Source: Nitrosomonas sp. (lineage in GTDB: Bacteria; Pseudomonadota; Gammaproteobacteria; Burkholderiales; Nitrosomonadaceae). From it: 64,000 nucleotides of DNA. The position numbers and the translations under genes were made by a program. Location of the stretch: the NCBI RefSeq assembly GCF_019752095.1, contig NZ_JAIEMO010000030.1, positions 1,144 to 65,143 on the forward strand, read 5' to 3'. The first letter of the stretch is position 1. The number at the start of each line of letters is the position of its first letter. This document shows, in pieces, positions 29,563 to 48,993 of the stretch. The notes below the pieces were generated by a model. The model saw nothing but the letters and a program-made list of their open reading frames with translations, had not been told where the DNA came from and ran no database searches.

Positions 29563-31140
29563 ATGACTGACTTAATCCATGATCTGATTTTTGAAGCTGC
29601 AGAACGAGCGCCAGATTCTGAAGCGCTGTCATATCAAGGTCAGCGTATGTGCTATGCCATGTTGGCTGGGCATGTTGAAGCAAAAGCGGGTGGTTTCCGG
29701 GAGCTCGGCTTAGATCGTGGTGAGCGGGTTGCGGTATATCTCGAGAAACGTTTTGAGACTGTTATTGCATTATTTGCTGCCGCTGCGACGGGAGGTATTT
29801 TTGTTCCGGTCAATCCGGTATTGAAACCGGAACAAGTCGCTTTTATTTTAATTGACTGCGACGCGCGAGTATTGGTGACGTCGTTGGAGCGGTTAAAATT
29901 GTTGCAAACTATTTTATTGTCTTGCCATGATCTGCGCGTGGTTGTGGTGGTCGATGCAAAAGACGAGCTTCCGGTTATTGCCGGACTTGTCATTGTTAGT
30001 TGGAATGAGGTTGACGGTGTCAATATAGCGACGCCAACTATCGATAGCGATATGGCAGCCATCATTTATACCTCTGGCAGCACCGGAAGACCCAAAGGAG
30101 TTGTGCTTTCGCACCGAAATCTGGTTGCCGGCGCTAAAAGTGTGATGCAGTACTTGCGGAATCGATCTGACGATCGAATTTTGATTGCGCTTCCGCTGAG
30201 TTTTGATTATGGATTGAATCAACTGACGACTGCTTTTTATGTAGGTGCGACAAGTATTTTGATGAATTATTTATTGCCACGGGATATTGTTGCTATCGTC
30301 AAAGATCAGCAGATTACCGGATTAGCTGCTGTGCCGCCATTATGGATTCAACTTGCGCAACTGAATTGGGGAAAAGCACCTTCGTTGCGCTACATTACCA
30401 ATTCAGGCGGTGCCATACCGCGTAGGACGCTGGATCAATTGCGCAATGCCTTACCGGAGGCACAAATTTTTTTGATGTATGGCTTTACCGAAGCTTTTCG
30501 TTCAACATATTTGGAGCCAGATGAGATCAGCCGGCGTCCTGATTCAATCGGTAAAGCGATACCGAATGCCGAAGTGCTGGTGTTGCGGGAAGATGGTTCG
30601 CATTGTGCGCCGGGTGAGCCCGGAGAATTGGTGCATCGGGGCGTTCAGGTTGGGATGGGTTATTGGAATGATGCGGAAAAAACCGTAACATGCTTTAAAC
30701 CCATTAAACCCCGCCAAGCTGGATTGATGCTCACTGAGATTGCTGCGTGGTCGGGTGATACTGTGTATAAGGATGAAGAAGGATTCTTGTACTTTGTCGA
30801 GCGCCGTGACGAAATGATTAAAACTTCGGGGTATCGCGTCAGTCCAACCGAAATTGAAGAAGTTCTCTATACCACGGAATGTGTCGCTGAGGCAGTCGCT
30901 TTTGGCATTCCGCATCCGATTCTAGGACAAGCAATCGCTGTAATCGTGACTGCCAGGAAAGGCATTCAGTTAGATATCGAAATTTTGTTAAGTGTATGCA
31001 AGAAACAACTACCCGCATATATGGTGCCAAATCATTTCGAAGTGCGCGAAGGTAACTTGCCGCGCAATCCTAACGGAAAAATAGACCGTAAATTTCTTTC
31101 TCAGCAATTACAGCTATTATTTGGTAAAAGCGATCCATGA
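29563..31140 (+). CDS. Acyl-CoA ligase (AMP-forming), exosortase A system-associated type
   Basis: YTSGSTGRPKG, YGFTEAFRSTY, IKTSGYRVSPTEIEE and LPRNPNGK; ATGA coupling to the decarboxylase as in PEP-CTERM loci. Confidence 0.85.
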   Translation: MTDLIHDLIFEAAERAPDSEALSYQGQRMCYAMLAGHVEAKAGGFRELGLDRGERVAVYLEKRFETVIALFAAAATGGIFVPVNPVLKPEQVAFILIDCDARVLVTSLERLKLLQTILLSCHDLRVVVVVDAKDELPVIAGLVIVSWNEVDGVNIATPTIDSDMAAIIYTSGSTGRPKGVVLSHRNLVAGAKSVMQYLRNRSDDRILIALPLSFDYGLNQLTTAFYVGATSILMNYLLPRDIVAIVKDQQITGLAAVPPLWIQLAQLNWGKAPSLRYITNSGGAIPRRTLDQLRNALPEAQIFLMYGFTEAFRSTYLEPDEISRRPDSIGKAIPNAEVLVLREDGSHCAPGEPGELVHRGVQVGMGYWNDAEKTVTCFKPIKPRQAGLMLTEIAAWSGDTVYKDEEGFLYFVERRDEMIKTSGYRVSPTEIEEVLYTTECVAEAVAFGIPHPILGQAIAVIVTARKGIQLDIEILLSVCKKQLPAYMVPNHFEVREGNLPRNPNGKIDRKFLSQQLQLLFGKSDP

Positions 31141-32372
31141 CCAATCCATTGTTGGAACATGCGCCACTTATACCGTTTTCTGTGCAGCACGATTGTTTAC
31201 AGATAGGTGGGATGGCATTGACTCGATTGGCCGATCGCGTGGGTACGACACCATTTTATGCATATGACCGGCAAAAAATCACCGAACGGATTGAGCTGCT
31301 GCGCCAGCATTTGCCGCAAGAGGTCTTGTTGCACTATGCGATAAAAGCTAACCCCATGCCGGCTGTGGTACAACATTTGGCAAGCTTAGTCGATGGGCTG
31401 GATATTGCTTCAATAGGAGAGATGAGGGTTGCGCTGGATACAATCCTTACTCCTGACAAGATAAGTTTTGCGGGGCCTGGGAAAAAGGTGCACGAGTTGC
31501 GCAGCGCGATTGCTGCAGGCGTGATTCTCAATGCCGAGTCGGAGCAGGAAATGGAGTCAATTGCAAAGCTAGGAATAGATTTAGGCATCACTCCCAAAAT
31601 TGCTATTCGTATTAATCCGGATTTTGAGCTCAAATCTTCCGGGATGAAAATGAGTGGCGGGCCAAAACCATTCGGCATAGATGCCGAGCGTGTGCCCGAT
31701 TTGCTGGTGCGGTTGGGATTTCTCGGTTTAGATTTCGTTGGATTTCATATTTTTAGCGGTTCACAGAATCTGAATGCGACCGCAATTCAGGAAGCGCATG
31801 AAAAAACTATCCAACTTGTTATTGAACTTGCTGAATATGCACCATCACCTGTGAAGCTGCTAAACATCGGTGGCGGTTTTGGAGTACCTTATTTTTCTGG
31901 TGATCGACCGCTGGATATTGCTGCGATTGGTGTTAATTTACAGTGCCTGATGAAAAGAGTAAAACAGCAGTTACCGCATACCACCGTTGCACTTGAATTG
32001 GGGCGATATCTGGTTGCCGAAGCAGGCATTTATGTTTGCCGCGTTTTAGAGCGGAAAATGTCGCGAGGGCAAGTCTTTCTCGTGACAGATGGCGGACTAC
32101 ATCATCATTTAGCGGCTTCCGGAAATTTAGGCCAAGTGATCCGCAAAAACTATCCTGTCATTATCGGCAATAAAGTTCAAGGCGTTGCAAGAGAGATTGT
32201 TTCAGTAGTGGGGCCGCTATGCACGCCGCTAGATTTGTTGGCGGATCAAATGCAAATGACCCAGGCATCCGTGAATGATCTGGTGGTTGTTTTGCAATCT
32301 GGGGCTTATGGTTTGAGCGCCAGTCCGACAGCTTTTCTTGATCATCCTCCGCCGGTTGAGGTGTTGGTTTAA
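31137..32372 (+). CDS. PLP-dependent decarboxylase (group IV), exosortase A system-associated type
   Basis: HYAIKAN PLP lysine, HIFSGSQ, NIGGGFG, ELGRY, GPLCTPLD and GAYG. Confidence 0.87.
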   Translation: MTNPLLEHAPLIPFSVQHDCLQIGGMALTRLADRVGTTPFYAYDRQKITERIELLRQHLPQEVLLHYAIKANPMPAVVQHLASLVDGLDIASIGEMRVALDTILTPDKISFAGPGKKVHELRSAIAAGVILNAESEQEMESIAKLGIDLGITPKIAIRINPDFELKSSGMKMSGGPKPFGIDAERVPDLLVRLGFLGLDFVGFHIFSGSQNLNATAIQEAHEKTIQLVIELAEYAPSPVKLLNIGGGFGVPYFSGDRPLDIAAIGVNLQCLMKRVKQQLPHTTVALELGRYLVAEAGIYVCRVLERKMSRGQVFLVTDGGLHHHLAASGNLGQVIRKNYPVIIGNKVQGVAREIVSVVGPLCTPLDLLADQMQMTQASVNDLVVVLQSGAYGLSASPTAFLDHPPPVEVLV

Positions 32373-32757
32373 TACAATTTGCAGTGAGAATTATGATTTG
32401 ATCTGCAGGTAATCTGAACAATCCACTTCGATAAAATTCTTTGCACTGAATTTAAATGTTGTTTATTGTGCACAAGCTTGAATCATTTGTAAATTTCTAC
32501 GATAAATCGAAAAAGACCAGTTGAATATTCGCTTTAAATATACTTAAATGACCAGTGCAATTGAATATGCGTTACTTATAAAGGTGGGAAAGTGTTTGTA
32601 TCGTGCCAGTAAAATAGAAAATACACTGTGGTTATTGCGTTTTATTACTAATGAAATATCGTAAATGTGATGTATGGTGTCGGCTCGTGCTATTAACTAA
32701 TTCATTATCGTATTAATTTTTGAATAATTACGAATTTCTTTAAAAATGTAATTAAAT

Positions 32758-33567
32758 GTGAATACGGTAAATTTTAGAACTAAACTGGGTGATTCTATGA
32801 GTGATTTGTATCAAAACTTTCAGAAATTTTTTGAACTTGTTGTCGCTGATACCGCTGAGCTGCTGGAACATGTTTATAAAATTCGCTATCAGGTATTGTG
32901 TGTTGAACAACGTTTGCCTGGCTTTGATCCGATGCTGTGTCCGGATCAGAAGGAAATGGATAGTTACGATAGTCACTCATCACACATTCTTTTGCGTTAT
33001 CGTCCTTCCGGGGCATATATTGGCACCGTACGACTGATTTTGCCTGACTCATCCAGGCCCGAGAAGCTTCTGCCGGTAGAGTTGTATGGACAACTGGATC
33101 CAACACTATGTGATGTCAAAGCGTTGCCTCGCCAACATACTGCTGAAATTTCACGTTTCCTGGTTATCAGTCAGTTTGATCGGCGTAGGGGGGATCGTCG
33201 CAAGCAAAACGAAGAAATCGACGGGGAAAAAAGAGAAGTGCAAGATCGGCGTTCATCTGATCGTCGTTCTTCGCTTAGTATTGGATTGGTGCTTATGGCG
33301 GGCGTCATGCGCATGTCAGTCAAATATAACATCAGACATTGGTTGTCCGTAGCAGATCCAGCGCTAAATAAATTGATGGGTTTTTATGGTTTGAGCTTTA
33401 ATCCAATTGGCCCCCAGGTTGATTATCACGGTATTCGTCGGCCTTATTATGTGAAAGTAGAGGAAGCTTTGGAAAGAATGTATGCAGAACACCGAGACGC
33501 ATGGGAGGTTGTGACTGGTAACGGTGAATATAGCCTTGATCATTACTCACTAATGGAACATCCTTAA
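32758..33567 (+). CDS. PEP-CTERM/exosortase-associated acyltransferase (FeeM/N-acyl amino acid synthase-like)
   Basis: YKIRYQVLCVE, EMDSYDSHS, GTVRLI, AEISRF and VDYHGIRRPY; start may be the ATG at 32797. Confidence 0.82.
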   Translation: MNTVNFRTKLGDSMSDLYQNFQKFFELVVADTAELLEHVYKIRYQVLCVEQRLPGFDPMLCPDQKEMDSYDSHSSHILLRYRPSGAYIGTVRLILPDSSRPEKLLPVELYGQLDPTLCDVKALPRQHTAEISRFLVISQFDRRRGDRRKQNEEIDGEKREVQDRRSSDRRSSLSIGLVLMAGVMRMSVKYNIRHWLSVADPALNKLMGFYGLSFNPIGPQVDYHGIRRPYYVKVEEALERMYAEHRDAWEVVTGNGEYSLDHYSLMEHP

Positions 33568-33583
33568 GTTAGGGATTTGTTTC

Positions 33584-34066
33584 TTGAACTTATTTCATCT
33601 TTTAATACAAGCTCGAATATCAGGCTTTTTGTCAAGAGCCAGATCATACTTTTGGTTTGTGATATTTGTCGGCCTTCTAGGTGTTAAGGCTGATGTCAGG
33701 GCGAATGATCATTTTGAGATTGTGACCAATCCGAGTGTCAGTGAAGTGGCGCTTTCGGTTAACTCATTGCGCTCCATTTTTAGTATGAGCCTGAAAACTT
33801 GGCCGAATGGAACCAAGATTCGGGTATTCGTGCTGTCCGATGATGATCAATTGCATAAAGCGGTTTCGAAGGGAAAATTGAATGTATTTCCTTATCAGTT
33901 AAGGTCTACCTGGGATCGTTTAGTATTTTCGGGTACGGGTCAGGCGCCTGTCAGAGTTAATTCAATAGAAGAGATGCTTGACAAAGTTGCCAATACCCCA
34001 GGGGCGATAGGTTATTTGTGGAGAGCCAATATTAATGAAAATGTTAACGTGCTCCAGATTAAATAG
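33584..34066 (+). CDS. Small periplasmic binding protein-like (PBP2/PstS-like) protein
   Basis: Signal peptide; LRSIFSM...WPNG, W.RLVFSG.GQAP and VANTPGAIGY pattern. Confidence 0.75.
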   Translation: MNLFHLLIQARISGFLSRARSYFWFVIFVGLLGVKADVRANDHFEIVTNPSVSEVALSVNSLRSIFSMSLKTWPNGTKIRVFVLSDDDQLHKAVSKGKLNVFPYQLRSTWDRLVFSGTGQAPVRVNSIEEMLDKVANTPGAIGYLWRANINENVNVLQIK

Positions 34067-35450
34067 CTACTTTGGCAATCTATCCAAATGGGTTGCCAAG
34101 GGGGTTATTTTGTTATTTGCGATTGGAAGTATTTCTGCTCAAGCTCAGGAGTCTCCAGCGCAAAAACAATCTGAATTGATCAAGCCGCTTAATAAAAGGC
34201 TGAAAAGTACAGACTTACTTGCTCAAGTTACCGAGACTGAGGTCAGTAGTGTCACCGAAAAACCCGGACTGGTAAGTACTGCGATGCAATGGTTACGTTC
34301 GACAGACCGCCCAGGGGATTTGCAGTTTCATGGTTTCGTCAGTCAGGCCTACATTACGACTTCCGATAATAATGTTTTTGGAAATAGTGATAATGGCGGC
34401 AGCTTCGGGCTTACAGAAGCTGGGCTCAATGCTTCGGTGCGACCACTCCCGAGACTGCAATTGTCGGCGCAGGTGTTGTCACGTCGTGCTGGTGAAGGAA
34501 ATTCGGGTGAGCCGCGCCTTGATTATGCTATTCTCGACTATCAGTTGTATGCTCACGAAGCAAACCAATTTGGTATTCGAGTGGGTCGATTGAAGAATCC
34601 CTTCGGTTTTTATAATGAAACACGGGATGTGGCATTTACGCGTCCCAGCATCCTGTTGCCACAGTCGATCTATTTTGATCGAACTCGAAATTTGGGACTT
34701 TCAAGTGATTCGGTGCAACTCTATGGTGATACCTCGGTGTTTGATTGGGGTACATTTTCTGCCCAATTTGGCGTAACGTTGCCAGTTGTAGATGATAAGG
34801 ACACTGAAAGTTCGCTTCTTGGTAGTGTACGAAAAGGGCATTTAAATCGAGAAGTTTCGTATATTGGCCGTGGAATATTTGAGACGAATGACAAGCGTCT
34901 TCGTTTGGGTATCAGTGGAATATGGTTGAATACTTCCTACGATCCTAATAGCCGATTGAATGATCCCTTGGGACCAGGTGCATTGCAGTTTACGCCAGTG
35001 ATTTTTTCTGCCCAGTATAATGCAGAGCGGTGGACGTTGACTTCCGAATATGCGATACGTCCCTTCGACTATAATAATGGTTTTAGAACGCCGCCAGCCC
35101 CCCGGGGGCTCAACGGGATAGACATCGTTGGCGAGAGTTATTACTTCCAGGGTGAATATCGCTTTACTCCAAAATGGGAAGGTATTGTGCGGTATGATGC
35201 TCTATTTACTGATCGATCTGACCGAGACGGAAGTGAATTTGCAAAGCTTACTGGCGGAATATCTCATACACGTTTTGCCAAAGACATTACAGTGGGCTTA
35301 CGCTGGAATGTTACTCCGGCGTTCATGCTGCGCGCTGAATATCATTATGTGAATGGAACTGCTTGGCTATCAAGATTGGATAATCCATCGCCTTTAGCTA
35401 CAGAACAACACTGGCATCTATACGGGATTCTGGGTTCTTATCGTTTCTAG
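34035..35450 (+). CDS. Outer-membrane beta-barrel (porin-like) protein
   Basis: Signal peptide (AQA/QES); FHGFVSQAY, LDYA, RVGRLKNPFGFYNETRDV; alternating beta strands; C-terminal SYRF. Confidence 0.78.
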   Translation: MKMLTCSRLNSYFGNLSKWVAKGVILLFAIGSISAQAQESPAQKQSELIKPLNKRLKSTDLLAQVTETEVSSVTEKPGLVSTAMQWLRSTDRPGDLQFHGFVSQAYITTSDNNVFGNSDNGGSFGLTEAGLNASVRPLPRLQLSAQVLSRRAGEGNSGEPRLDYAILDYQLYAHEANQFGIRVGRLKNPFGFYNETRDVAFTRPSILLPQSIYFDRTRNLGLSSDSVQLYGDTSVFDWGTFSAQFGVTLPVVDDKDTESSLLGSVRKGHLNREVSYIGRGIFETNDKRLRLGISGIWLNTSYDPNSRLNDPLGPGALQFTPVIFSAQYNAERWTLTSEYAIRPFDYNNGFRTPPAPRGLNGIDIVGESYYFQGEYRFTPKWEGIVRYDALFTDRSDRDGSEFAKLTGGISHTRFAKDITVGLRWNVTPAFMLRAEYHYVNGTAWLSRLDNPSPLATEQHWHLYGILGSYRF

Positions 35451-35461
35451 GCAGGTTTCTG

Positions 35462-38362
35462 ATGGAAACTAATTCCGGGGTTAAATTGGAAAAAGCGTCT
35501 ATTGTAATGAATCATCATGGCCGCAGGTTCCGCAGCCTGAGATGGAAAATTTCATTCAGCAGCAGTTTGATATTGCTGGCCGTTGTGATGCTGTTTTGTT
35601 TTGTTAGCTATCTGAGTTTGATGGCTAATTTTGACAATCAGCGAGAGGATGATTACCGACGGTATTCCAGAGAAGTCAACAGTTTGATCCAGAATACTAC
35701 GCAGAATTTATATCAGCTTGCTGAAATGATTCCGTTTCTGGATGGCATGAAAAAAGCTTTGCTGTTGAATGACGCGGAAACTATTAGCAATATTTTTGAT
35801 GCGCATTGGGCGTTGCTGCAATTTCATAATAGTGTTGAATTTATTCATTTCTATAACCCATCGAATCAACTGAGCGCCAGTTGGGATAGTTTGGCTGCCA
35901 ATATTGATGATGGTATTTTACTGTCGGATTGGGTGCGCCAGGTTAATCAATCCGAACGGCCGATAAATCCGTTACTCTGCCGGGAAAATTGTATCCAATA
36001 CATAGTTGCACCTTTGCTGGTAGCGGGAAAGAAAGCGGGTGTCGTCGTCATGGGAATTTCCTTGGCAGATGTGCTTTTAGCTTTTAAGCGATTATCCGGT
36101 GCCGATATGGGGTTGTTGGTCAAGGAGCCGGATAGTTTGCAAAATGACGATTCTGATTTCTTGTATTGGAATATCTATATTTCAGCACTGACCAACAAAG
36201 AAAGAAATCTTGAGATTCTCAAAAAATCTGCTCAAAATCATAAAGATATGACTGAACTCAATGATGGCGTTCAGGTTCGTTGGAATGATCAGTATTTTCA
36301 ATTAAAAGTATTTCCACTCAATTCATATGAGCCAGATAAAGCTCATTTGGTCATCATAACGGATGTTACGGCTGCAGTAATTAATATTCATGATTCCATC
36401 TGGAAAATTGCATTAATCGGTTTGCTTGGACTAGTTTGCTCTGAGATTTTATTATTTTTTATTTTTACCAGGCTATTGGCAAAGCTCAAAGATGTCGCGT
36501 TTGTACTCCCACTTCTTGCCAACGGACAGTTTGAGAAATTCCGCTTATCGCTGGCCTCTACAGGTCGTGTGCAACGTTTTCGAGATGAGGTCGATACGTT
36601 GTCGGAAGCGGCTGTGTCTTTATCGCTGCAGCTGGAAAAACTACAGCAGGAAGTATCAAGCCGTACCGCAATGCTTATTGAACAAAAGAATGCACTCAGT
36701 AAAGAAAGAGATTTTGTGAAGAATTTACTAGATACTGCGCAGGCGATTGTATTAACACAGGATTCTGACGGTGAAGTTATGTCATTAAACGCTTATGGAG
36801 AGATGCTAACTCGTTATTCGGAGGGTGAATTATTTGGTAAATCTTTTCTGGATATCTTAATTCCGGATTATGAGTTGCATGATCTACTTTTCCACATTCA
36901 AGAAGTTCATACCGGGCAGAGGATGCAATTGCGCCATGAGGCTATTACACATTGTAAAGATGGAACAACACGTCATGTCGCTTGGCTGCATTCTCATTTG
37001 CCCTGGAACTCCCCCGGTGAGCCGTCAATTTTATCAGTCGGTCTGGATGTTACCGAATATAAGCGGGTTGAAGGGCATTTAGCTTGGCTAGCTGATCATG
37101 ATCCATTGACTAATTTGTATAACCGGCGCCGTTTTAGTGAAGAGTTGGAGCAGGTGCTTAGTCGGGCTGAACGGTATAACCACCCAGGTGCGTTGTTATT
37201 TTTTGATTTGGATCGCTTTAAGTATATCAATGATACCAGTGGGCACCAAGCCGGCGACACGTTGCTTAAAATGGTTTCGAGCATGCTGGCGCAAAACATT
37301 AGAGCGGATGACATTACAGGGCGTCTGGGGGGCGACGAGTTTGCGATTATTTTGCCGGAAATTAATGCTAATGGAGCGATAGGCGTCGCCAAGAAGGTAT
37401 TGGATCAACTGAGCTTGGCACAATTAACAATCAATAACCGTACCCATAAAATTTCAGCCAGCATCGGGATTGCATTATTTCCCGAACATGGCGCCAATAT
37501 ACATGATTTGCTGGCGGCGGCTGATCTTGCCATGTATCAGGCAAAAGCGATGGGGCGGAATGCCTGGTACTTGTTTACGGATAAAGACAGCAGCCGCGAA
37601 CGCATTCATACGTTGGTGTATTGGAAAGAGAAGATCGAGTACTCGCATGTACATGATAATTTCATATTGTATTTACAACCGATTATGCATATTAAATCGA
37701 AAGAAATTTCACATTATGAGGTATTGCTGCGAATGCAGGACATCGATGGCACGGTGCTCTCACCCGCAGACTTTATCCCCGCTGCAGAGCATACTGGGTT
37801 AATTCATGCAATTGATCATATGGTATTGCGCAAAGCCATAGCGCAAGTGGCTGAAATTTACCAGGCTGGATTTAAAGTTAATTTTTCGATTAACCTGTCT
37901 GCGCATGCCTTCAATGATCCTGAATTGTTGCCTATACTTAAGACAGAATTGACGCTGCATGAAATGGACCCGGCATGTTTAATGTTTGAAATCACTGAAA
38001 CGGCAGCGCTTGAAGATTTGCCCGGAGCGCGCGGATTGATGGTGGAGATTATAGAATTAGGATGTGGTTTTGTGTTGGATGATTTTGGGGTCGGTTTTTC
38101 GTCATTTTATTATTTGCGGGAATTGCCGGTTAGTGTTGTCAAAATTGATGGTTCGTTTATACGTAACTTGACCGAAAACAGTGATGATCTTATTCTGGTG
38201 AATGCACTCTGCAGTGTTGCAAGAGGTTTTGGCAAAAAAATTACAGCTGAATTTGTCGAAAGCGCAGAAATACTTTCCTTAATAGAGAAATTGGATATCG
38301 ATTATGCTCAAGGGTATTACATAGGAAAGCCAGCACCTGCAAGTCAATTTCTGGGAAAATAG
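35462..38362 (+). CDS. Membrane sensor diguanylate cyclase/phosphodiesterase (periplasmic Cache-like, HAMP-like, PAS, GGDEF, EAL)
   Basis: Two TM helices flanking a ~270-aa periplasmic region; HDPLTNLYNR, RADD I-site, GGDEF; EVLLR, FEITE, DDFG, KIDGSF and QGYY. Confidence 0.9.
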   Translation: METNSGVKLEKASIVMNHHGRRFRSLRWKISFSSSLILLAVVMLFCFVSYLSLMANFDNQREDDYRRYSREVNSLIQNTTQNLYQLAEMIPFLDGMKKALLLNDAETISNIFDAHWALLQFHNSVEFIHFYNPSNQLSASWDSLAANIDDGILLSDWVRQVNQSERPINPLLCRENCIQYIVAPLLVAGKKAGVVVMGISLADVLLAFKRLSGADMGLLVKEPDSLQNDDSDFLYWNIYISALTNKERNLEILKKSAQNHKDMTELNDGVQVRWNDQYFQLKVFPLNSYEPDKAHLVIITDVTAAVINIHDSIWKIALIGLLGLVCSEILLFFIFTRLLAKLKDVAFVLPLLANGQFEKFRLSLASTGRVQRFRDEVDTLSEAAVSLSLQLEKLQQEVSSRTAMLIEQKNALSKERDFVKNLLDTAQAIVLTQDSDGEVMSLNAYGEMLTRYSEGELFGKSFLDILIPDYELHDLLFHIQEVHTGQRMQLRHEAITHCKDGTTRHVAWLHSHLPWNSPGEPSILSVGLDVTEYKRVEGHLAWLADHDPLTNLYNRRRFSEELEQVLSRAERYNHPGALLFFDLDRFKYINDTSGHQAGDTLLKMVSSMLAQNIRADDITGRLGGDEFAIILPEINANGAIGVAKKVLDQLSLAQLTINNRTHKISASIGIALFPEHGANIHDLLAAADLAMYQAKAMGRNAWYLFTDKDSSRERIHTLVYWKEKIEYSHVHDNFILYLQPIMHIKSKEISHYEVLLRMQDIDGTVLSPADFIPAAEHTGLIHAIDHMVLRKAIAQVAEIYQAGFKVNFSINLSAHAFNDPELLPILKTELTLHEMDPACLMFEITETAALEDLPGARGLMVEIIELGCGFVLDDFGVGFSSFYYLRELPVSVVKIDGSFIRNLTENSDDLILVNALCSVARGFGKKITAEFVESAEILSLIEKLDIDYAQGYYIGKPAPASQFLGK

Positions 38363-38385
38363 TGATTTCAGTAATGTAGTGGTTC

Positions 38386-39477
38386 ATGTGTAACAATTGG
38401 CATAGCTTATTCGACAGACATCTATCCAGAAGAATGGTAAATCAATGGAACGATATCAGCGCGAGATCCCGCAACGGTAGAGTTTTTCGAGTCATGCTGA
38501 CCGTGTTGGCGTTCTTGTTTATTCATCCGGTGTTTGCGGATAAGGTTAACGGTATTTTCTCTGTACAACAGTCTTGCCCAGCCTTCCTTTCAAAAAATAA
38601 ATCGACCAATCCGGATAACGCACAAATTTTGGCGGGTAATCAGTACGAGATTATCGAGGTTATCAATCCAAATCACCCTGTCTGGTATCGAGTTGTCATA
38701 CCTAATGTAAATCCTAAAGCACGATGGGTAAGTGCGGCATGCGGTCAGGCACATTTATCAGGCCAAAGTGCGAAAGTTAACAGAAGTGGCGAGGGAGGTA
38801 ATGGCTGTAATGTTGCAGGTGAGGCGGATAGCTATGTGCTGGCACTGTCTTGGCAGCCTGCTTTCTGTGAAACTAAATCAGACAAACCGGAATGTAAAAT
38901 TTCAGATCCGCATGCTTATCAAGCCAGGCATTTTGCGTTACATGGTTTATGGCCGAACAAAAAAAACTGTAATAAAAATTATGCATTTTGCGGTTCAGTA
39001 AAAAAAAAGGAAGATGAGTTTTGTGATTATCCGGTCGTACAATTGGGTACCGCGTCTCAAGTATCACTGGCCGAAGTAATGCCCAGTGTGGTGGCTGGTT
39101 CTTGTCTGGAGCGGCATCAGTGGCATAAGCATGGTACTTGTCAGGGAAACTGGTCAGTGAGTGAATTTTTTGAGGTATCTGTTGATTTGGCTCGGCAATT
39201 TAATGATTCTGGCATGGCTTATTTTATGAATCGCAGAATTGATCAACAGGTGCGTACCGAAGATTTTCTCAATCGCTTGGGAGTGGTCTTGGGTTCTGCT
39301 GCCAGAGACCGAATTAAACTGGATTGTAATCGGCAAGGAATGCTAATGGAAATTCAGTTGAGTTTGTCAGCTGAGTTAATCCCAGGTGCTGATCTTGAAA
39401 AGCTGATCATGGATGCGCCAGTGCAAGAAAAATCCAATTGTGGAGAAACTTTCCGCGTTGATCGCATTGGGCAATAA
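38386..39477 (+). CDS. Secreted ribonuclease T2 family protein with N-terminal extra domain
   Basis: LALSWQPAFC, LHGLWP (CAS I) and HQWHKHGTC (CAS II); signal peptide suggests a start near 38494. Confidence 0.88.
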   Translation: MCNNWHSLFDRHLSRRMVNQWNDISARSRNGRVFRVMLTVLAFLFIHPVFADKVNGIFSVQQSCPAFLSKNKSTNPDNAQILAGNQYEIIEVINPNHPVWYRVVIPNVNPKARWVSAACGQAHLSGQSAKVNRSGEGGNGCNVAGEADSYVLALSWQPAFCETKSDKPECKISDPHAYQARHFALHGLWPNKKNCNKNYAFCGSVKKKEDEFCDYPVVQLGTASQVSLAEVMPSVVAGSCLERHQWHKHGTCQGNWSVSEFFEVSVDLARQFNDSGMAYFMNRRIDQQVRTEDFLNRLGVVLGSAARDRIKLDCNRQGMLMEIQLSLSAELIPGADLEKLIMDAPVQEKSNCGETFRVDRIGQ

Positions 39478-39561
39478 CCCTCATCCAAGGAAAAGCAAAA
39501 ATTATCCACTGCAGATTCCAAGTTTAATCCCGATATCTACGGAAGATTAAACTAGATTTAG

Positions 39562-39700
39562 CAGGCCGTTGAAAAACGTTTTTGAAGCAGCTGATGCAAG
39601 GCAAAAACAGGAGAAAAGCGTCGTTTATGCATAATGAATGAGCATCTTGACCCTGTTTTTAACACCGCAGCAGCAATGCAGATAGTTTTTCAACGGCCTG
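39562..39700. mobile_element. 139-bp MITE with 16-bp terminal inverted repeats and TTAG target duplication
   Basis: CAGGCCGTTGAAAAAC (39562-39577) / GTTTTTCAACGGCCTG (39685-39700); TTAG at 39558-39561 and 39701-39704; no ORF. Confidence 0.85.
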
Positions 39701-40086
39701 TTAGGCATGTTTCTTTATTGCGAAATACCGCCATAAGTATCGTCATTTCTCCTGTTTACCATCCTGTGCGTATTTTATAATACCAAATAAAGTAGGGTTA
39801 ATCAGATGGTCTTTCGGTTACTACTGCTCAAAAATAACGTTTAGATATTTCTTTTCGGGGTAGGAAAATTGGTTTTCTATTTGTAAGGTTATTAAGAAAA
39901 ATACTCAGAGCCCCGTAGTTATATATACAGCAGATGAGTTTAGTCTGGATATTTAGTATCAAAAAAGGATTCAAGTGACTGTGAGTAATCAAGTGACAAA
40001 CTTGAAATTTATTGTAATCGGTTAATTTGAGATCATTAGGCTTATGTTATTGCTTATATTTATGCTGCTAGAGTTTCGGTCGGGTA

Positions 40087-42015
40087 ATGGTAGGGAGCGG
40101 TAATATGAATCAATTTGCTAATGCTAGTCCATCCGTGATCGCTCGTGAGACATTAAAGCAGCTTGCGATACTCAAAATACAACCTACTCCCGAAAATTAT
40201 CTTAGGCTATACAATAAAATCGCAGGTAATCCAGATAATAATTTATCTGGCATTACTGCAAAAATGCTCCTCGAACTGGCGAAAGAATTTCCATGTCACA
40301 CGCCGAATCTACTTAATTGTGCTAATAACTTAGAGCAGGCTGTCAAAGATAACAACTGGCATAGTTATAAATCTGTATTGATAAAATGTGTTGCGACTGT
40401 AACGGGTTCTACCACGACTGCTTCACCGATTGATACTGCGCAATCTATACCTGGAGCATCCTGGGTAAAAGTTATTAACAGCTTATTCGATGATGTCGTT
40501 AGTTCGGGAAAATTTTCTGAGAGCGCAAATAAAAGAAAAAAATTAAAACAAGTGCTAGTTAAATTTTCTGGCAGTCCTGAACTTATCTATAGTGAATTAA
40601 TGGCACTAGTTCAGTCATGGAAAGCTTCGAATTCGGCTTCTCGCGAGTCGGAAGATAATATAGAAAATATATCGATATCAGCATTAGGTGCAAATTCTTC
40701 TATGCAAGAATCACATTTCAAAGAAGATATTCTGGCGCAAGAATATGAAATCAGCAGCTATACAGATCAGTTATTAGAATTGCTGGCACAAATTCTAGAA
40801 CAAATTATTGCTAATCAGGTTGCAGATAAAGTTCTGGCAGACGAAGCTAGGTCTTTAGGTAGGCAGGTTAAAAAGATTCAAAGCAAGCTAGCAATGGAGC
40901 AGTTTATCGCCAGCTTTCGGAAATTTTGTATTAGGCTAGAATTGGGTAATGGAGATAAAACGAATATACAGCAGGGCTTGGTTAATTTATTAAACATGCT
41001 GATGGATAGTACAAGCGAATTATTGTCGGAAGATCAATGGATTAAAACGCAGGTTTCCAAGCTGAAGAAAGTCATGTCTAAGCCATTGGATATGCAGATA
41101 ATAGTGCAAGCTGAATTTTCGCTCGAAAAAATAATACAGAGACAAGCCAAAGTAAAGCAAAGCCTGAACAAGACAAGGGAAACCATGCGGCAAATGGTAG
41201 CCTCACTAATTTCCAATCTTGAGGAACTTTCAGATGCCACGGGTGGGTATCATGAGAAATTAGAATGTTATTCCGAAAGAATCAGTAAAGCTAATAATAT
41301 TGAAGATATAAATCAATTGCTTACTGAGATAATGCAAGAAACTCAGAAAGTGCAAAATAATGTGCTTAACCATCGCAATGATTTGGCATTTGTGCGTGCA
41401 GAAATTGACGAAGCACAAAATCAAATCAATCAGCTTGAAATACAATTGCAGGAAATGAGCGAACAAGTGCAAGAAGATCATCTCACAGGTGCACTGAATC
41501 GACGAGGGTTAGATACTGCATTTAAACGTGAGGTTGCACAGTTAACTCGCAGCGAGGGAACACTCTGCTTTGCTTTATTGGATATTGATAATTTTAAGCA
41601 GTTAAACGATACGCATGGGCATCATGTGGGTGATGACGCGTTGAAATACTTGGTTGAAGCAGTCAAAGAAACTGTGCGCCGGGATGACGTAATATCACGC
41701 TATGGTGGGGAGGAATTTGCAATTTTGTTACCTAATTCCGGGTTAAAAACGGCGATATCAACGGTTGCAAGGATACGGCGCTATTTAACCAAGAAATTCT
41801 TTCTGCATGGAAATGATCGATTGTTGATTACATTTAGCGCTGGTGTTGCGCAATTGCAGCCGGGTGAATCGCAAGATAGCTTGTTCAAGCGAGCTGACGA
41901 AGCGTTATATTTTGCTAAAAGAAATGGCAAAAATCAGATTGTTGCAGCCGAAGAGACTGTCACCGCCGCTGAAGATTGTAAAAGCCAGAATAAAGATCCA
42001 GTTAGCACTGTTTGA
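40087..42015 (+). CDS. Cytoplasmic diguanylate cyclase with long helical N-terminus
   Basis: DHLTGALNRR, DIDNFKQLND, RRDD I-site, GGEEF and ADEALYFAK. Confidence 0.9.
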   Translation: MVGSGNMNQFANASPSVIARETLKQLAILKIQPTPENYLRLYNKIAGNPDNNLSGITAKMLLELAKEFPCHTPNLLNCANNLEQAVKDNNWHSYKSVLIKCVATVTGSTTTASPIDTAQSIPGASWVKVINSLFDDVVSSGKFSESANKRKKLKQVLVKFSGSPELIYSELMALVQSWKASNSASRESEDNIENISISALGANSSMQESHFKEDILAQEYEISSYTDQLLELLAQILEQIIANQVADKVLADEARSLGRQVKKIQSKLAMEQFIASFRKFCIRLELGNGDKTNIQQGLVNLLNMLMDSTSELLSEDQWIKTQVSKLKKVMSKPLDMQIIVQAEFSLEKIIQRQAKVKQSLNKTRETMRQMVASLISNLEELSDATGGYHEKLECYSERISKANNIEDINQLLTEIMQETQKVQNNVLNHRNDLAFVRAEIDEAQNQINQLEIQLQEMSEQVQEDHLTGALNRRGLDTAFKREVAQLTRSEGTLCFALLDIDNFKQLNDTHGHHVGDDALKYLVEAVKETVRRDDVISRYGGEEFAILLPNSGLKTAISTVARIRRYLTKKFFLHGNDRLLITFSAGVAQLQPGESQDSLFKRADEALYFAKRNGKNQIVAAEETVTAAEDCKSQNKDPVSTV

Positions 42016-43714: not shown

Positions 43715-46700
43715 ATGCTCCAATTTTGTGGTGGACGTGCCCTTTCTCCGTTTCGTCTGGAGAAATTACTCAATCAAATTAGAACCCTCAATCTGCCAGT
43801 AACAGCCATTCATACAGAATATTGGCATTTTTGCTCGGTGACGCGTAATTTGCACGATAATGAACTGAATGTGTTGAGAAAAATACTTAACTACAATCAG
43901 GTGCAGGAAAAGGAATACCATTCAGGCGAGTTTCTTTTAGTTTTGCCGCGTCCGGGCACAATTTCACCGTGGTCTACAAAAGCTACGGATATTGCCCAGC
44001 ATTGCGGTTTAACCGCTGTTGAACGTATTGAGCGCGGGATTGCGTATTATATCCAATGCAGCGCACAACTTTCGATTGATGATAAATCCCATCTCGTTTC
44101 TTTGCTGCATGACCGTATGACCGAAGCTGCGTTTTCTTCATTTGATGATGCCGCCAAACTATTCCAGCATTTTCCGCCGCAGTCACTCAACACGATTGAT
44201 GTGATGCACGGTGGTATTGAGGCTTTATTACAGGCAAATCAAAATATGGGATTGGCCCTGTCATTGGATGAGATTGAGTACTTGTTGAATCATTTTCAGC
44301 ACATGCAGCGCAATCCAACCGATGTCGAATTGATGATGTTCGCGCAGGCCAATTCCGAGCATTGTCGCCATAAAATATTCAACGCAGACTGGATTGTTGA
44401 TGGCAAGGTTCAGGATAAATCGCTGTTTGCTATGATACGCAACACGCATCAAAGTCATCCGCAAGGCACGCTGGTGGCATATGCCGACAATGCCAGCGTC
44501 ATTGAGGGAGCAAGAATAAAGCGCTTTTATCCGGATAGTCAGCGAGCATATGGTTACGCCGAGGAAAAAACGCACGTGTTGATGAAAGTCGAGACACACA
44601 ATCATCCGACTGCGATTTCACCGTTTCCAGGTGCTGCAACGGGTGTCGGCGGTGAAATTCGCGATGAAGGCGCAACGGGTCGGGGTGCAAAACCAAAAGC
44701 CGGATTATGCGGTTTCTCGGTATCCAATCTGAATATTCCGGAGTTTGTGCAACCGTGGGAGTACGATGGAACCGATAATCAAGCAACCTATGGTAAGCCC
44801 GGACGCATCGCATCAGCGTTACAGATTATGCTGGAAGGTCCGATTGGCGGGGCGGCATTCAACAATGAATTCGGACGCCCCAATTTAGCGGGTTATTTCC
44901 GCACTTTTGAAGAGCGCCTGGGCGGAGAAATGCGTGGTTATCACAAGCCAATCATGCTGGCGGGTGGCGTCGGCCAGATTTCAGATTTGCATGTGCGTAA
45001 GGAAAAATTCCCTGCAGGCTCTTTGCTGATTCAACTGGGTGGACCGAGTATGCTGATTGGTTTAGGTGGTGGTGCGGCTTCCAGCATGGATACCGGTAGC
45101 AATACCGAAGCATTGGATTTTGATTCGGTGCAACGCGGTAATCCGGAAATGCAACGGCGTGCGCAGGAAGTTATCGATCGCTGCTGGCAACTACAGCGAA
45201 GCGGTATCGAGAATCCGATTTTATTTATCCATGACGTAGGTGCGGGAGGCTTATCCAATGCGTTCCCAGAATTGGTGCATGACTCTGGCCGTGGTGGGCG
45301 TTTTAATTTGCAAAATGTTCCTTCCGAAGAAACCAGTTTGTCACCGATGCAGATTTGGAGCAATGAGGCACAGGAGCGCTACGTTCTGGCGATCAGACCA
45401 GAATCTTTGGCGTTGTTCCAAAGCATTTGCGAGCGCGAACGTTGCCCGTTCGCCGTAGTGGGTGAAGCCACAAACGACGAACAATTGGTGGTAATCGATG
45501 CGCAATCCCCTACGCTGCCAGTTGATATGCCGTTGCCGGTACTACTCGGCAAGCCGCCGAAAATGACACGCGATGTTGCTCATAATATCCGAATACTTCC
45601 GATACTTGATTGGCAGGGTGTGAATTTGACCGAAGCCGTCTATCGAGTGCTATGTTTGCCTGCGGTGGCCGATAAAACTTTTTTAATTACCATTGGCGAT
45701 CGCAGTGTCGGCGGCCTATCAGCGCGTGATCAGATGGTTGGTCCATGGCAAATCCCAGTTGCCGACGTTGCGGTGACCAGCATGGGGTATCAGACCTATT
45801 TGGGGGAGGCATTTGCCATTGGCGAACGCACGCCATTGGCTTTGATAGATTTCAAAGCGGCAGCGCGCATGGCGGTGGGTGAGGCGATTACAAATATCGC
45901 GGCGGCATCAATTGGCAAAATTGAAAAGATTAAATTGTCGGCCAATTGGATGGCCGCAGCCGGACATTCAGGTGAAGACGCCGGATTGTATGACGCAGTG
46001 CATACTGTTGGTATGGAATTGTGCCCACAACTGGGCATTAGCATACCGGTCGGAAAAGATTCGATGTCGATGAAAACTGCTTGGGAAGAATTGGGGTTGC
46101 GTAAGGAAGTTACGGCACCGTTATCGCTGATTATCACTGCTTTTGCAACAGTGAAGGACGTGCGCAAAACCCTGACACCACAATTACGCACCGATTGCGG
46201 CGACACTGAATTGATTCTGATTGATTTGGGGCAAGGTCAAAATCGACTTGGTGGTTCATCATTGGCGCAGGTGTATAAACAAGTTGGCAATATTGCGCCG
46301 AATATTGACGGCGAAACCGGCGCACAACGCATACGAAACTTTTTTAATGCGATTCAGAAGCTTAACGAAATGGATAAGCTGCTCGCATACCACGATCGTT
46401 CCGATGGCGGCTTATTCGTGGCATTATGCGAAATGGCTTTTGCCGGACATACTGGCTTGACCGTGAATCTGGATCAGTTGTGCTTTGATCCGCACAGCTG
46501 TGATATCGATGGATCGGAATTGCGACCTGAGCAATTGGGAGGGCGTTTCCTAGAACACCTTTTTGCGGTACTTTTCAATGAAGAACTGGGTGCTGTGATT
46601 CAAATTGCAGCCGCACAGCACCGTGAGGTGCTGCAGGTGTTAACCGAAGCTGGGTTGCGGGATGTCAGTTTCATCATCGGCCACTTGAATAAAATCGATG

Positions 46701-47701
46701 AAGTCCGCTTGATGCGCAATAACAAGCCGGTGTTGGCGGAGAAACGAGTGGATTTGCAACGTGCCTGGTCGGAGACCACGTATCAGATGCAAAAGCTGCG
46801 TGATAATCCAACTTGTGCGCAACAGGAATATGACCGGATTCTTAATGTGGATGACCCAGGATTGCAGGTTACATTAAGTTATGCTGTTGGTGACGATATC
46901 GCTGCGCCTTTCGTTCAAACGGGAGTGCGTCCACGTATAGCGATATTGCGTGAGCAAGGGGTGAATGGGCATGTGGAAATGGCGGCGGCTTTCGATCGCG
47001 CTGGTTTTGCTGCGGTCGATGTGCATATGAGCGATATCCTGTCAGATCGATTGTCATTAAAAGATTTTATGGGATTGGCTGCATGTGGCGGATTTTCCTA
47101 TGGTGATGTGCTGGGGGCGGGTGAAGGCTGGGCTAAATCAATTTTGTTCAATCCACGCGCACGTGAAGAATTCGAAGCATTTTTTCAGCGCAGCGATACA
47201 TTTGCACTCGGTGTGTGCAATGGTTGCCAAATGATGAGCAATCTGCATGAGATCATACCAGGAACAGAGCATTGGCCACGCTTCAGACGCAATCTGTCGG
47301 AGCAATTTGAGGCGCGCTTTGTTATGGTGGAGGTACAACCCAGTCCATCGCTATTTTTTGATGGCATGGCCGGAAGCCGGATGCCGATCACGGTGGCGCA
47401 TGGTGAAGGTAAGGTGGAGTTTTTCGGTCAGTCTGAAAATGTTGCATCCTTAGTGACCCTGCGATTTGTGGATAACCACGGGCAAGTAACCGAGCAGTAT
47501 CCTGATAATCCGAATGGATCGCTCCAAGGCATCACCGGATTGACTACCTCGGATGGGCGTTTTAATGTGTTGATGCCGCATCCGGAACGGGTATTTCGAG
47601 TGACGCAACATTCCTGGTATCCTGATACTCGCTCTGGTAGGGTGGAGGAGGATGGACCTTGGATGCGTTTGTTTCGAAATGCACGTAAATGGGTTGGATG
47701 A
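43715..47701 (+). CDS. purL: Phosphoribosylformylglycinamidine synthase (large type)
   Basis: [36 protein letters not shown] and MPHPER. Confidence 0.98.
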
Positions 47702-47742
47702 CCCTCTGATTTTATGAATCTGTTAACAGGACAATCAAAGAA

Positions 47743-48975
47743 ATGACAAATTTTAATGTAAACCGCTGTAGCAGAATTATTAGCGTGACCTTTTTGCTGC
47801 TGAGTCTATGCGTAAATACCGCATTGGCAAACGCCATTACTCCAGCAAAAAAACCGGTACCAAAAGATTGCGTGCCATTGGGGGATTGGGTAGTTCCAGG
47901 TTTGGGTAAAACCTCACAACAGGAAATAATCGCACGTGCAGTGAAGGCTGCGGTGGTGCTGTTGGGGGAAACGCATGTCAATGCGGATCATCATCGTTGG
48001 CAGTTGCAAACATTGGTGGCTTTACACGCCGTGCGCCCCAATATGGTGATCGGATTCGAGATGTTTCCACGTCGAGTGCAAGCAGCGTTGGATAAATGGA
48101 TTGCCGGTGAACTGGGTGAAAAGGAATTCCTTCGTGCAGCTGAGTGGGATCGGGTTTGGAATACGGATGCCAATCTATATTTACCTCTGTTTCATTTTGC
48201 GCGGATGAATCGTATCCCAATGCTCGCATTGAATATTGAAACAAAATTGCGCCATCAAGTGGCAGAAAAGGGCTTTTATGGCGTTCCATTGGAAGAACGA
48301 GAAGGGGTGACGCGTCCGGCGGAACCAAGTCAGGCGTATATGGATTTTTTACTGCCGATTTACAAGCAACATGACCGCAAAGACAAGAAAGCAGGCGAAA
48401 TCACGCAAGATGATCCGGATTTCCGTCGTTTTATCGGTGGGCAACAATTATGGGATCGTGCCATGGCCCAGGTACTGCAACAAGCCACAATAGAATCTAC
48501 CGATCCGGAGAAACCGCTGGTTGTGGGGGTTATGGGTGCGGGCCATGTGCTGCATGGTTTTGGTGTGACGCATCAACTACATGACCTAGGTGTCCAGAAT
48601 GTTATTGCATTGTTACCGTGGGATAGCAGTAAATCCTGTAAGCAGTTAGTTGAAGGTGTTGCCGACGCCGTTTTTGGCGTGTTGCCGCATGTTTCTGAGT
48701 CTTTCAGGCCGCAATTTCAGCGCTTGGGAATACGCTACGAAATGGGCCGGGGCGGAGCAGTAGTGCTGCAAGTCGAGAAAAACAGCATTGCTGAAGCTGC
48801 GGAGCTCATGGCTTCGGATGTGATTCTGGAAATGGCCGGTGTGCCGATCAAAGCTACCGAAGACGTTATCAATGTTGTAAAACGGCAAGCGTCCGGAACC
48901 TGGTTGCCGATCAAAATCAAACGGGATGGTATAGAAATGCTAGTCATTGCAAAATTTCCTGCTTTGAATCTTTAA
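47743..48975 (+). CDS. ChaN-family (EreA-like fold) periplasmic protein with C-terminal PDZ domain
   Basis: VLLGETH...HHRWQ, IGFEMF, QQLWDRAMA and G.MGAGH; PDZ-like tail (V..NSIAEAAEL..SDVI). Confidence 0.8.
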   Translation: MTNFNVNRCSRIISVTFLLLSLCVNTALANAITPAKKPVPKDCVPLGDWVVPGLGKTSQQEIIARAVKAAVVLLGETHVNADHHRWQLQTLVALHAVRPNMVIGFEMFPRRVQAALDKWIAGELGEKEFLRAAEWDRVWNTDANLYLPLFHFARMNRIPMLALNIETKLRHQVAEKGFYGVPLEEREGVTRPAEPSQAYMDFLLPIYKQHDRKDKKAGEITQDDPDFRRFIGGQQLWDRAMAQVLQQATIESTDPEKPLVVGVMGAGHVLHGFGVTHQLHDLGVQNVIALLPWDSSKSCKQLVEGVADAVFGVLPHVSESFRPQFQRLGIRYEMGRGGAVVLQVEKNSIAEAAELMASDVILEMAGVPIKATEDVINVVKRQASGTWLPIKIKRDGIEMLVIAKFPALNL

Positions 48976-48993
48976 TTATTTTTATTTCAATCT

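Follow-up and report, generated by a model that had tools for sequence, protein, structure and literature searches.

A four-gene acyltransferase, half-binding-protein, porin and GGDEF-EAL sensor module of Nitrosomonas as a candidate self-signaling route to cyclic di-GMP

Does a run of five co-oriented genes in Nitrosomonas encode a circuit that reads a self-made signal across the cell envelope and converts it into cyclic di-GMP (c-di-GMP)? The genes, which specify an acyltransferase, a small secreted relative of periplasmic binding proteins (PBPs) that we call the half-PBP, an outer-membrane barrel, a GGDEF-EAL sensor and an RNase T2, lie in a 64,000-nt stretch of Nitrosomonas sp. DNA (assembly GCF_019752095.1, contig NZ_JAIEMO010000030.1, positions 1,144-65,143, forward strand), hereafter the window. 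A preliminary description proposed that a ligand, possibly the N-acyl product of the acyltransferase or products of the RNase, enters through the barrel, is carried by the PBP-like protein to the sensor and sets c-di-GMP for floc or biofilm formation. The acyltransferase does prove linked to the rest of the cassette; no support emerges for the role given to RNase T2, for a HAMP domain in the sensor or for any necessity of the acyltransferase. Gene order in relatives indicates that the conserved module comprises four of the five genes, with RNase T2 outside it, and that the arrangement of these four (acyltransferase, half-PBP, barrel, sensor) is far beyond chance, which the RNase T2 adjacency is not. 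We posit, tentatively, that the module brings a self-made N-acyl amino acid-type signal to the half-PBP and the Cache sensor, and thereby controls c-di-GMP and exosortase/exopolysaccharide (EPS)-dependent floc formation. The closest homologs of the window's barrel and half-PBP come from Nitrosomonas; the host belongs to the N. ureae/oligotropha group of that genus, and window-like DNA is present in drinking-water and wastewater metagenomes.

All five open reading frames (ORFs) lie on the + strand, the first as 32758-33567 and the other four at the positions given in Table 1, and the junctions from gene 1 to gene 5 measure 16, -32 (an overlap), 11 and 23 nt, which reproduces exactly the coordinates and gaps first reported for five co-oriented genes. 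Judging by this spacing, four or all five of the genes may be co-transcribed. The ORFs, the domain types and most of the motifs first reported stand, the exceptions being the HAMP domain, a literal EAL motif and the start of gene 1: the acyltransferase probably begins at ATG 32797, which is invariant across nine relatives, and not at GTG 32758, where the ORF itself opens and where the ORF track had placed the start.

Conservation of gene order carries the case for a module. In a genome survey, the window proteins were mapped onto 80 loci around barrel homologs 50-82% identical to that of the window (the best 80 of 558 barrel relatives), sampled from Nitrosomonas, Nitrosospira, Nitrosovibrio, Nitrotoga and metagenome-assembled genomes (MAGs). 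The barrel is preceded by the half-PBP in 74/74 evaluable loci and followed by the sensor in 70/72, and the gene directly upstream of the half-PBP is the acyltransferase in 69/70. The gap between barrel and sensor is conserved at about 12 nt, within a span of about 0-18 nt. Upstream of this block stand gltX-ligase-decarboxylase, or PrsK-like, PrsR-like, ligase, decarboxylase and AsnB-like genes, or, in Nitrosospira, unrelated genes; some Nitrosospira loci carry tandem acyltransferase copies (two or three). Downstream of the sensor we find at least six differing contexts, mostly an opposite-strand gene, and on this ground we end the unit at the sensor. The neighborhood survey that had been recommended as a check thus finds the acyltransferase linkage conserved despite changing flanks.

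A second survey extended to distant lineages, with hidden Markov models (HMMs) made from the Nitrosomonadales genes and 80 metagenome loci whose half-PBPs are 36-50% identical to that of the window. Given as non-independent counts, as these loci include many near-relatives, a barrel follows the half-PBP in 61/62 distant loci, a sensor of the same dCache_3-GGDEF-EAL type follows the PBP-barrel pair in 46/48, and an exosortase-type acyltransferase lies immediately upstream in 19/59 (16 co-oriented, 3 divergent). The four genes also occur together in at least five orders and orientations among distant Gammaproteobacteria. Methylotuvimicrobium alcaliphilum has the PBP-barrel pair convergent with acyltransferase-sensor, Halomonas sp. 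PA16-9 has PBP-barrel-sensor-acyltransferase, and a gammaproteobacterial MAG (L166) has sensor-methyltransferase divergent from acyltransferase-PBP-barrel; the acyltransferase is divergent in three metagenome loci (L081, L102 and L111), locus L167 has sensor-PBP-barrel without an acyltransferase, and locus L148 has two PBP-barrel pairs ahead of the sensor. Locus L133 (3937-12175) carries PrsK-like and PrsR-like genes, two acyltransferase-PBP-barrel blocks and one sensor; the copies share 48/63/64% identity, which fits pairs of signal and receptor that are drifting apart. That the four genes have come together repeatedly in different orders, and that a block of them has been duplicated, indicates shared function rather than inherited synteny. 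Across both surveys the PBP-barrel pair emerges as the invariant core, the sensor as its nearly constant partner, and the acyltransferase as a frequent, but not universal, member.

Table 1. Positions of the module, its upstream elements and the adjoining genes in the window
Feature	Position	Strand	Basis or remark
Exosortase A system-associated acyl-CoA ligase	29563-31140	+	TIGR03098, 772 bits, above cut-off
Exosortase A-associated pyridoxal phosphate (PLP)-dependent decarboxylase	31137-32372	+	TIGR03099, 615 bits, above cut-off
Perfect 10-bp palindrome TTGTGCACAA, candidate regulator site	32466-32475	.	In 385-bp AT-rich spacer
Near-invariant 30-nt non-coding block GTTGAATATTCGCTTTAAATATACTTAAAT	32520-32549	+	Phylogenetic footprint, 9 aligned loci
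Exosortase/PEP-CTERM-associated acyltransferase, FeeM/N-acyl amino acid synthase type, cytoplasmic	32797-33567	+	TIGR03694, Acetyltransf_5
Secreted half-PBP, equivalent to one lobe (domain II) of a PstS-type phosphate-binding protein, ~120 mature residues	33584-34066	+	Pfam, PDB profile, AlphaFold2 (AF2)/Foldseek
16-strand porin-type outer-membrane barrel	34035-35450	+	AF2, Foldseek, weak Porin_O_P match
Inner-membrane sensor, transmembrane segment (TM) 1-dCache_3-TM2-helical linker-PAS-GGDEF (RxxD I-site)-EAL	35462-38362	+	Pfam, NCBIfam, motifs
RNase T2/RNase I-like periplasmic ribonuclease, N-terminal anchor, 145-residue extension	38386-39477	+	Pfam

What might the four proteins do? The acyltransferase is, as had been proposed, of the exosortase-associated kind: it scores 253.3 bits against TIGR03694 (cut-off 111.95), covering profile positions 2-239 of 241, and 37 bits against Pfam Acetyltransf_5, with a weak, sub-threshold match to the Pfam FeeM family. 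It does not reach the threshold of the LuxI-type autoinducer synthase model PF00765 (16.9 bits vs 24), and neither a TM segment nor a signal peptide is predicted in it. Its surroundings are those of an exosortase system: the ligase and decarboxylase matched by TIGR03098 and TIGR03099 lie directly upstream, across the 385-bp spacer, and PrsK/PrsR-like genes lie upstream in related loci, other Nitrosomonas having PrsK-PrsR-like genes, then the ligase-decarboxylase pair, then an AsnB-like gene. An acyl-CoA ligase occurs within 10 kb of the module in 44/62 loci; the exosortase gene itself is not inside the 64-kb window. N-acyl amino acid synthase (NAS) enzymes were reportedly linked to the exosortase system by Craig et al. 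2011, as later work cites that study. The ligase and decarboxylase are possible precursor suppliers for the acyltransferase, and one may speculate that the former could give an activated fatty acid and the latter an amine. Disruption of the homologous "ExoAT" in Methylomonas LW13 leads to loss of a polysaccharide band (PMC11072679), and the product class of these acyltransferases is amphiphilic and surface-active (PMC4897644). Class I S-adenosylmethionine (SAM)-methyltransferases recur by the PBP-barrel pair in other lineages (L162 15559-16344; L166 6155-6937; L140 7939-8703; L137 9170-9775; L148 4164-4829) and are of two types, one beside the acyltransferase and a second directly upstream of the half-PBP in acyltransferase-less loci; their role may lie in tailoring the product or in making an alternative signal.

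The second gene had been described as encoding a 160-aa PBP-like protein, and both profile and model comparisons indicate that its homology to PstS/PBP_like_2 is real but partial. It scores 25.2 bits against Pfam PBP_like_2, below the gathering score of 27, and matches profile positions 92-187 of 267 only. A profile built from 43 homologs matches the PstS proteins 4exl, 4ecf and 4h1x in the PDB, in 4exl over residues 81-186, and the AF2 model (pLDDT 80) retrieves PstS structures in Foldseek over ~120 of their 245-320 residues. One lobe is thus matched in Pfam, in the 4exl alignment and by Foldseek, and since the PstS matches span ~120 residues only, the protein is a single secreted lobe and not a complete, two-lobe Venus flytrap. 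Phosphate in E. coli PstS is liganded by T10, F11, S38, D56, R135 and S139-G140-T141; the first four of these eight ligands fall in the lobe that the half-PBP lacks. The family motif reads FPYQLRxxWDRLVxSGTGQAP...TPGAIGY, and the profile alignment to 4exl sets the PstS loop at half-PBP Y104-Q105-L106; on this alignment, the invariant YQL appears to stand in place of the SGT phosphate loop. Another candidate for that loop, R112-x3-S116-G117-T118, was rejected on the strength of the same alignment; direct alignment to E. coli PstS is weak and anchors the PGAIGY motif only. In a profile search of 1.84 billion representatives the family proves large: 223 clusters pass E<1e-30, 1309 clusters (50% identity) pass E<1e-10, and of the 150 best matches listed nearly all are 130-230 aa long. 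No NCBIfam model matched either the half-PBP or its partner barrel, and members are labeled hypothetical or "phosphate ABC transporter substrate-binding protein," the latter label being probably misleading. A single-lobe binding protein acting with a porin would be a structural novelty.

The third protein, which had been called an outer-membrane β-barrel, is modeled by AF2 as a 16-strand porin fold (pLDDT 72), with VhChiP, DcaP, Omp32 and OprP among the top Foldseek matches; OprP ranks 7th and OprO 22nd, after general porins. Its match to Porin_O_P (PF07396; 26.6 bits, cut-off 20.9) is C-terminal only, at profile positions 260-345 of 370. The protein has a signal peptide, a ~55-residue disordered N-terminal extension, a strictly invariant internal loop at residues 185-222, and a C-terminal Phe. 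The 32-nt overlap of its start with the half-PBP stop is kept in most Nitrosomonadales loci, an arrangement that points to translational coupling of the two genes.

The sensor has TM segments at residues 28-58 and 312-342, a periplasmic dCache_3 domain (98 bits), a PAS match, and GGDEF (169 bits) and EAL (215 bits) domains in Pfam. The initial domain layout is right for dCache_3, PAS, GGDEF and EAL; no HAMP domain (PF00672) is found between TM2 and PAS at E <= 5 (residues 335-425), where only coiled-coil-like noise appears. The motifs had been listed as intact GGDEF, RxxD and EAL, and RADD614 indeed stands five residues ahead of GGDEF623; the EAL motif reads EVL753, the commonest form in the family (59/67 relatives), and EITE843 and DDFG873 are present. 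RxxD, GGDEF, E[VAI]L, DDFG and ExTE are kept in all 67 full-length Nitrosomonadales sensor orthologs, and both activities would therefore be under selection, as in the bifunctional enzymes MbaA and DcpA; the sensor is probably a bifunctional c-di-GMP cyclase/phosphodiesterase. In Nitrosomonas ureae Nm13 (L001 13561-13564) the sensor ortholog is frameshifted between the GGDEF and EAL domains, either through an error in the sequence or because the two activities have been uncoupled in nature.

How could these parts form a signaling route? We posit that the ligand is an N-acyl amino acid-type product of the acyltransferase, the synthesis of which the ligase and decarboxylase next door may feed. 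This amphiphile would get to the periplasm and to the outside, the dedicated porin-type barrel providing passage across the outer membrane, in whichever direction it flows. The secreted single-lobe PBP, made in translational coupling to the barrel, would bind the amphiphile and would dock on, or leave, the dCache_3 domain that the GGDEF-EAL enzyme exposes to the periplasm; the enzyme would then flip between c-di-GMP synthesis and breakdown and thereby tune exosortase/PEP-CTERM-linked EPS and floc formation. We rate the likelihood of this route, taken as a whole, as slightly short of even. A broader claim, which we regard as rather doubtful, is that the long-chain N-acyl amino acids/amines of exosortase synthases constitute a new class of autoinducers, read by an extracytoplasmic one-lobe PBP/porin/dCache_3-GGDEF-EAL receptor. 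If this were true, (i) information on cell density or aggregation would enter c-di-GMP directly, without LuxR or a kinase, (ii) synthase/PBP/porin sets would diversify as matched channels, for which the L133 duplication may be compared, (iii) bacteria with only the PBP-barrel-sensor triad would eavesdrop on producers, and (iv) the system would operate in beta- and gammaproteobacterial ammonia oxidizers, methanotrophs and many uncultured Proteobacteria. The cluster suggests an undescribed self-signaling route to biofilm control, and the module supplies a concrete receptor and output, c-di-GMP, that are open to testing. Aggregation of its carriers matters in practice, as they include nitrifiers of wastewater and drinking-water biofilms and methanotrophs.

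Several observations weigh against this self-signaling route. Another gene stands upstream in 40/59 distant PBP-barrel-sensor loci, many of them interrelated, and because the triad so often lacks an adjacent acyltransferase, it can presumably work without a linked synthase. Many of the acyltransferase-less loci represent one marine/sediment lineage with the order purL(-), RDD protein, PBP-barrel-sensor, HIT(-), pepN(-). Conversely, Nitrosococcus oceani and MAG L164 have acyltransferase-PBP-barrel with no adjacent sensor, and some exosortase acyltransferases stand alone; the last of these findings and the 40/59 loci leave any necessity of the acyltransferase unsupported. The reverse direction, from TIGR03694 genes to the triad, was sampled on three plasmid/chromid records, two of Alteromonas mediterranea and one of Aromatoleum aromaticum: neither half-PBP nor barrel lies beside the exosortase acyltransferase in two inspected records of the three, and a plasmid search gave a half-PBP match in none of the three; the acyltransferases of these records are of a more distant exosortase type. 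Finally, a single-lobe PBP is unable to close on a ligand like classical binding proteins, and half-PBP and barrel both descend from phosphate-type families.

Could the module instead serve to make and secrete a compound? The half-PBP would then be a carrier, and the barrel the exit or insertion site, for an amphiphile (a surfactant, or a matrix or outer-membrane lipid), with the sensor merely monitoring traffic or envelope state. Such an export route draws on the tightness of the acyltransferase-PBP-barrel unit, which in Nitrosococcus oceani and L164 has no sensor beside it and is duplicated as a unit in L133, on the translational coupling of PBP and barrel, and on the surface activity of the amphiphilic product class (PMC4897644). 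It is hard put to explain the frequent PBP-barrel-sensor loci without a linked acyltransferase, and neither the recurrence of the dCache_3 sensor type after distant PBP-barrel pairs (46/48) nor the general-porin fold of the barrel, which is no known lipid-exporter fold, speaks for it; we deem export unlikely.

We give the same low credence to a third possibility, in which the triad detects an unrelated solute, for example a phosphorus oxyanion, and the acyltransferase is merely a co-regulated member of an exosortase/EPS regulon. The PstS-like character of the PBP and the matches of the barrel to Porin_O_P and to OprP/OprO would suit an anion sensor; yet the half-PBP is without the lobe that bears four of the eight E. 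coli PstS phosphate ligands, YQL apparently occupies the position of the SGT loop (from the 4exl alignment), and the barrel is matched best by porins of the general or anion kind rather than by OprP in particular. Also in favor, the triad stands alone beside housekeeping genes in the large marine/sediment group, and acyltransferases exist without it, but the shuffled four-gene clusters and the duplicated acyltransferase-PBP-barrel block are unexpected from mere co-regulation.

The fifth gene is no part of the module. Its product scores 66.8 bits against the RNase T2 model PF00445 (threshold 26) and does not reach the E. coli RNase I equivalog model (93.9 vs 436); it contains HGLWP and WHKHGTC, which we take to be the two catalytic motifs of the RNase T2 family, and its N-terminal hydrophobic segment suggests that it is probably periplasmic. 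Among relatives other than the window, the gene adjoins the sensor in 1/64 evaluable loci, that of N. ureae Nm13; N. oligotropha has it 2.7 kb off, behind opposite-strand genes, in 60/64 evaluable loci it is absent from the neighborhood, and it is absent in all distant loci examined. This distribution marks RNase T2 as a lineage-specific passenger and not a member of the module, even though it may be co-transcribed with the module in the window strain. The suggestion that the RNase makes the ligand (2',3'-cyclic nucleotides or oligonucleotides) and that all five genes form one circuit, which the 23-nt gap, the shared strand, the failure of a consensus scan to find a terminator-like site between sensor and RNase T2, and the probable periplasmic location of the enzyme might favor, is highly improbable in view of an adjacency confined to N. 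ureae, displaced in N. oligotropha and lacking in distant loci.

Two features of the DNA beyond the RNase gene are worth recording. The spacer after it holds a 143-bp element resembling a miniature inverted-repeat transposable element (MITE; window 39558-39700), with perfect 16-bp terminal inverted repeats CAGGCCGTTGAAAAAC at 39562-39577 and 39685-39700; it has 5-10 times the contig depth of the DNA on either side, and a 143-bp presence/absence joint (39557>39701) occurs among related metagenome strains. A second GGDEF protein of 642 aa is encoded at window 40087-42015 and keeps its place beside the RNase gene of N. ureae Nm13 (L001); its N-terminal part of ~440 residues has neither a significant Pfam match nor a predicted TM segment.

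Where does expression of the module begin? In the window and in 16 related loci, the 30-nt block of the spacer precedes the acyltransferase by 200-350 nt, and the palindrome stands at a fixed distance of 54 nt ahead of it in 13/16 related Nitrosomonas loci and in the window. The block can be read as TTGAAT-17-TTAAAT, a putative weak sigma-70-like promoter; it falls under the threshold of a consensus promoter scan, and the sites that the consensus promoter/terminator scan did return are no more frequent than in shuffled sequence. On account of these conserved upstream blocks, the module may have its own regulated start, apart from the ligase-decarboxylase pair, with a leader of ~240 nt. Neither this leader nor any other part of 32300-40200 gives a credible Rfam match to a riboswitch or other known RNA.

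Elsewhere in the window, purL and an M1-family peptidase gene lie near the module (43715-51033), as they do in the distant marine lineage (L086 5513-17850); the shared neighborhood may be old synteny or coincidence. Three tandem paralogs (475, 345 and 475 aa), calcium-binding RTX-repeat proteins whose C-terminal region is of serralysin type, are encoded on the - strand at 10556-15095, and their genes adjoin that of an MsbA-related ABC exporter (8432-10204). Hopanoid genes at 5708-8430 encode a squalene-hopene cyclase and an HpnG phosphorylase, their listed ORFs overlapping by ~140 nt.

How does the module compare with known systems? The acyltransferase is a clear member of the TIGR03694 family by HMM score and lies beside exosortase-A accessory genes; for this family, a genetic link to PEP-CTERM/exosortase systems and to EPS phenotypes has been documented, while its coupling to a half-PBP, a porin and a GGDEF-EAL sensor has no description in the searchable literature. 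We found no published description of a single-lobe PBP with a dedicated porin, of the link to an exosortase acyltransferase, or of the breadth of the family, in a literature search that did not extend to Craig et al. 2011. The synthase fold is distantly LuxI/FeeM-like, and the window cluster contains no LuxR. LuxP-LuxQ, which responds to autoinducer 2 (AI-2), offers a likeness: its binding protein picks up a self-made signal in the periplasm and passes it on to a membrane sensor, the periplasmic part of which is a double PAS/Cache-like domain. The output of the window system would be c-di-GMP and not a phosphorelay. YfiBNR (TpbB) likewise spans three compartments, with one component in the outer membrane, a small protein in the periplasm and, in the inner membrane, a diguanylate cyclase whose sensor domain is periplasmic, but there is no homology, the barrel is porin-type whereas YfiB is an OmpA-like lipoprotein, and the window enzyme adds an EAL domain. 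A YfiR-like identity of the half-PBP was considered and rejected: YfiR (DUF4154) has no match in it at E <= 5 in Pfam and is not among the 50 Foldseek matches listed, which yield PstS proteins.

In kind, the module is a binding-protein-controlled GGDEF-EAL receptor, and two characterized systems come closest. In Vibrio cholerae, periplasmic NspS relays polyamine signals to MbaA, a GGDEF-EAL protein (PMC8079147), and the ligand state of the binding protein switches c-di-GMP synthesis and degradation and thereby controls biofilm (PMC8079147, PMC8967002). The window resembles this pair in having a gene for a secreted binding protein next to that of an inner-membrane protein with a periplasmic domain and intact GGDEF and EAL domains, a neighborhood kept in 74/74 genome loci and 46/48 distant loci. 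It differs in that NspS is a full two-lobe PotD-type PBP, whereas Foldseek assigns the half-PBP a single PstS-type lobe and hence no NspS/PotD homology; NspS-MbaA also lacks both a dedicated outer-membrane pore and a linked signal synthase, and the window sensor domain is dCache_3. In Agrobacterium tumefaciens, an excreted, self-made pterin is bound by periplasmic PruR, which docks on the periplasmic part of the GGDEF-EAL enzyme DcpA (PMC11194511). As in the route posited for the window, the cell reads a metabolite of its own; the gene for its small secreted binder shares an operon with that for the dual GGDEF-EAL enzyme, which the complex biases, thereby controlling attachment that depends on polysaccharide (PMC11194511). 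PruR has a molybdenum cofactor (MoCo)-binding-like fold, the ligand is a pterin and not a lipid, there is no barrel, and the synthase lies outside the operon; even so, PruA-PruR-DcpA is the nearest precedent for a "LuxR-less" path from a self-made signal to c-di-GMP.

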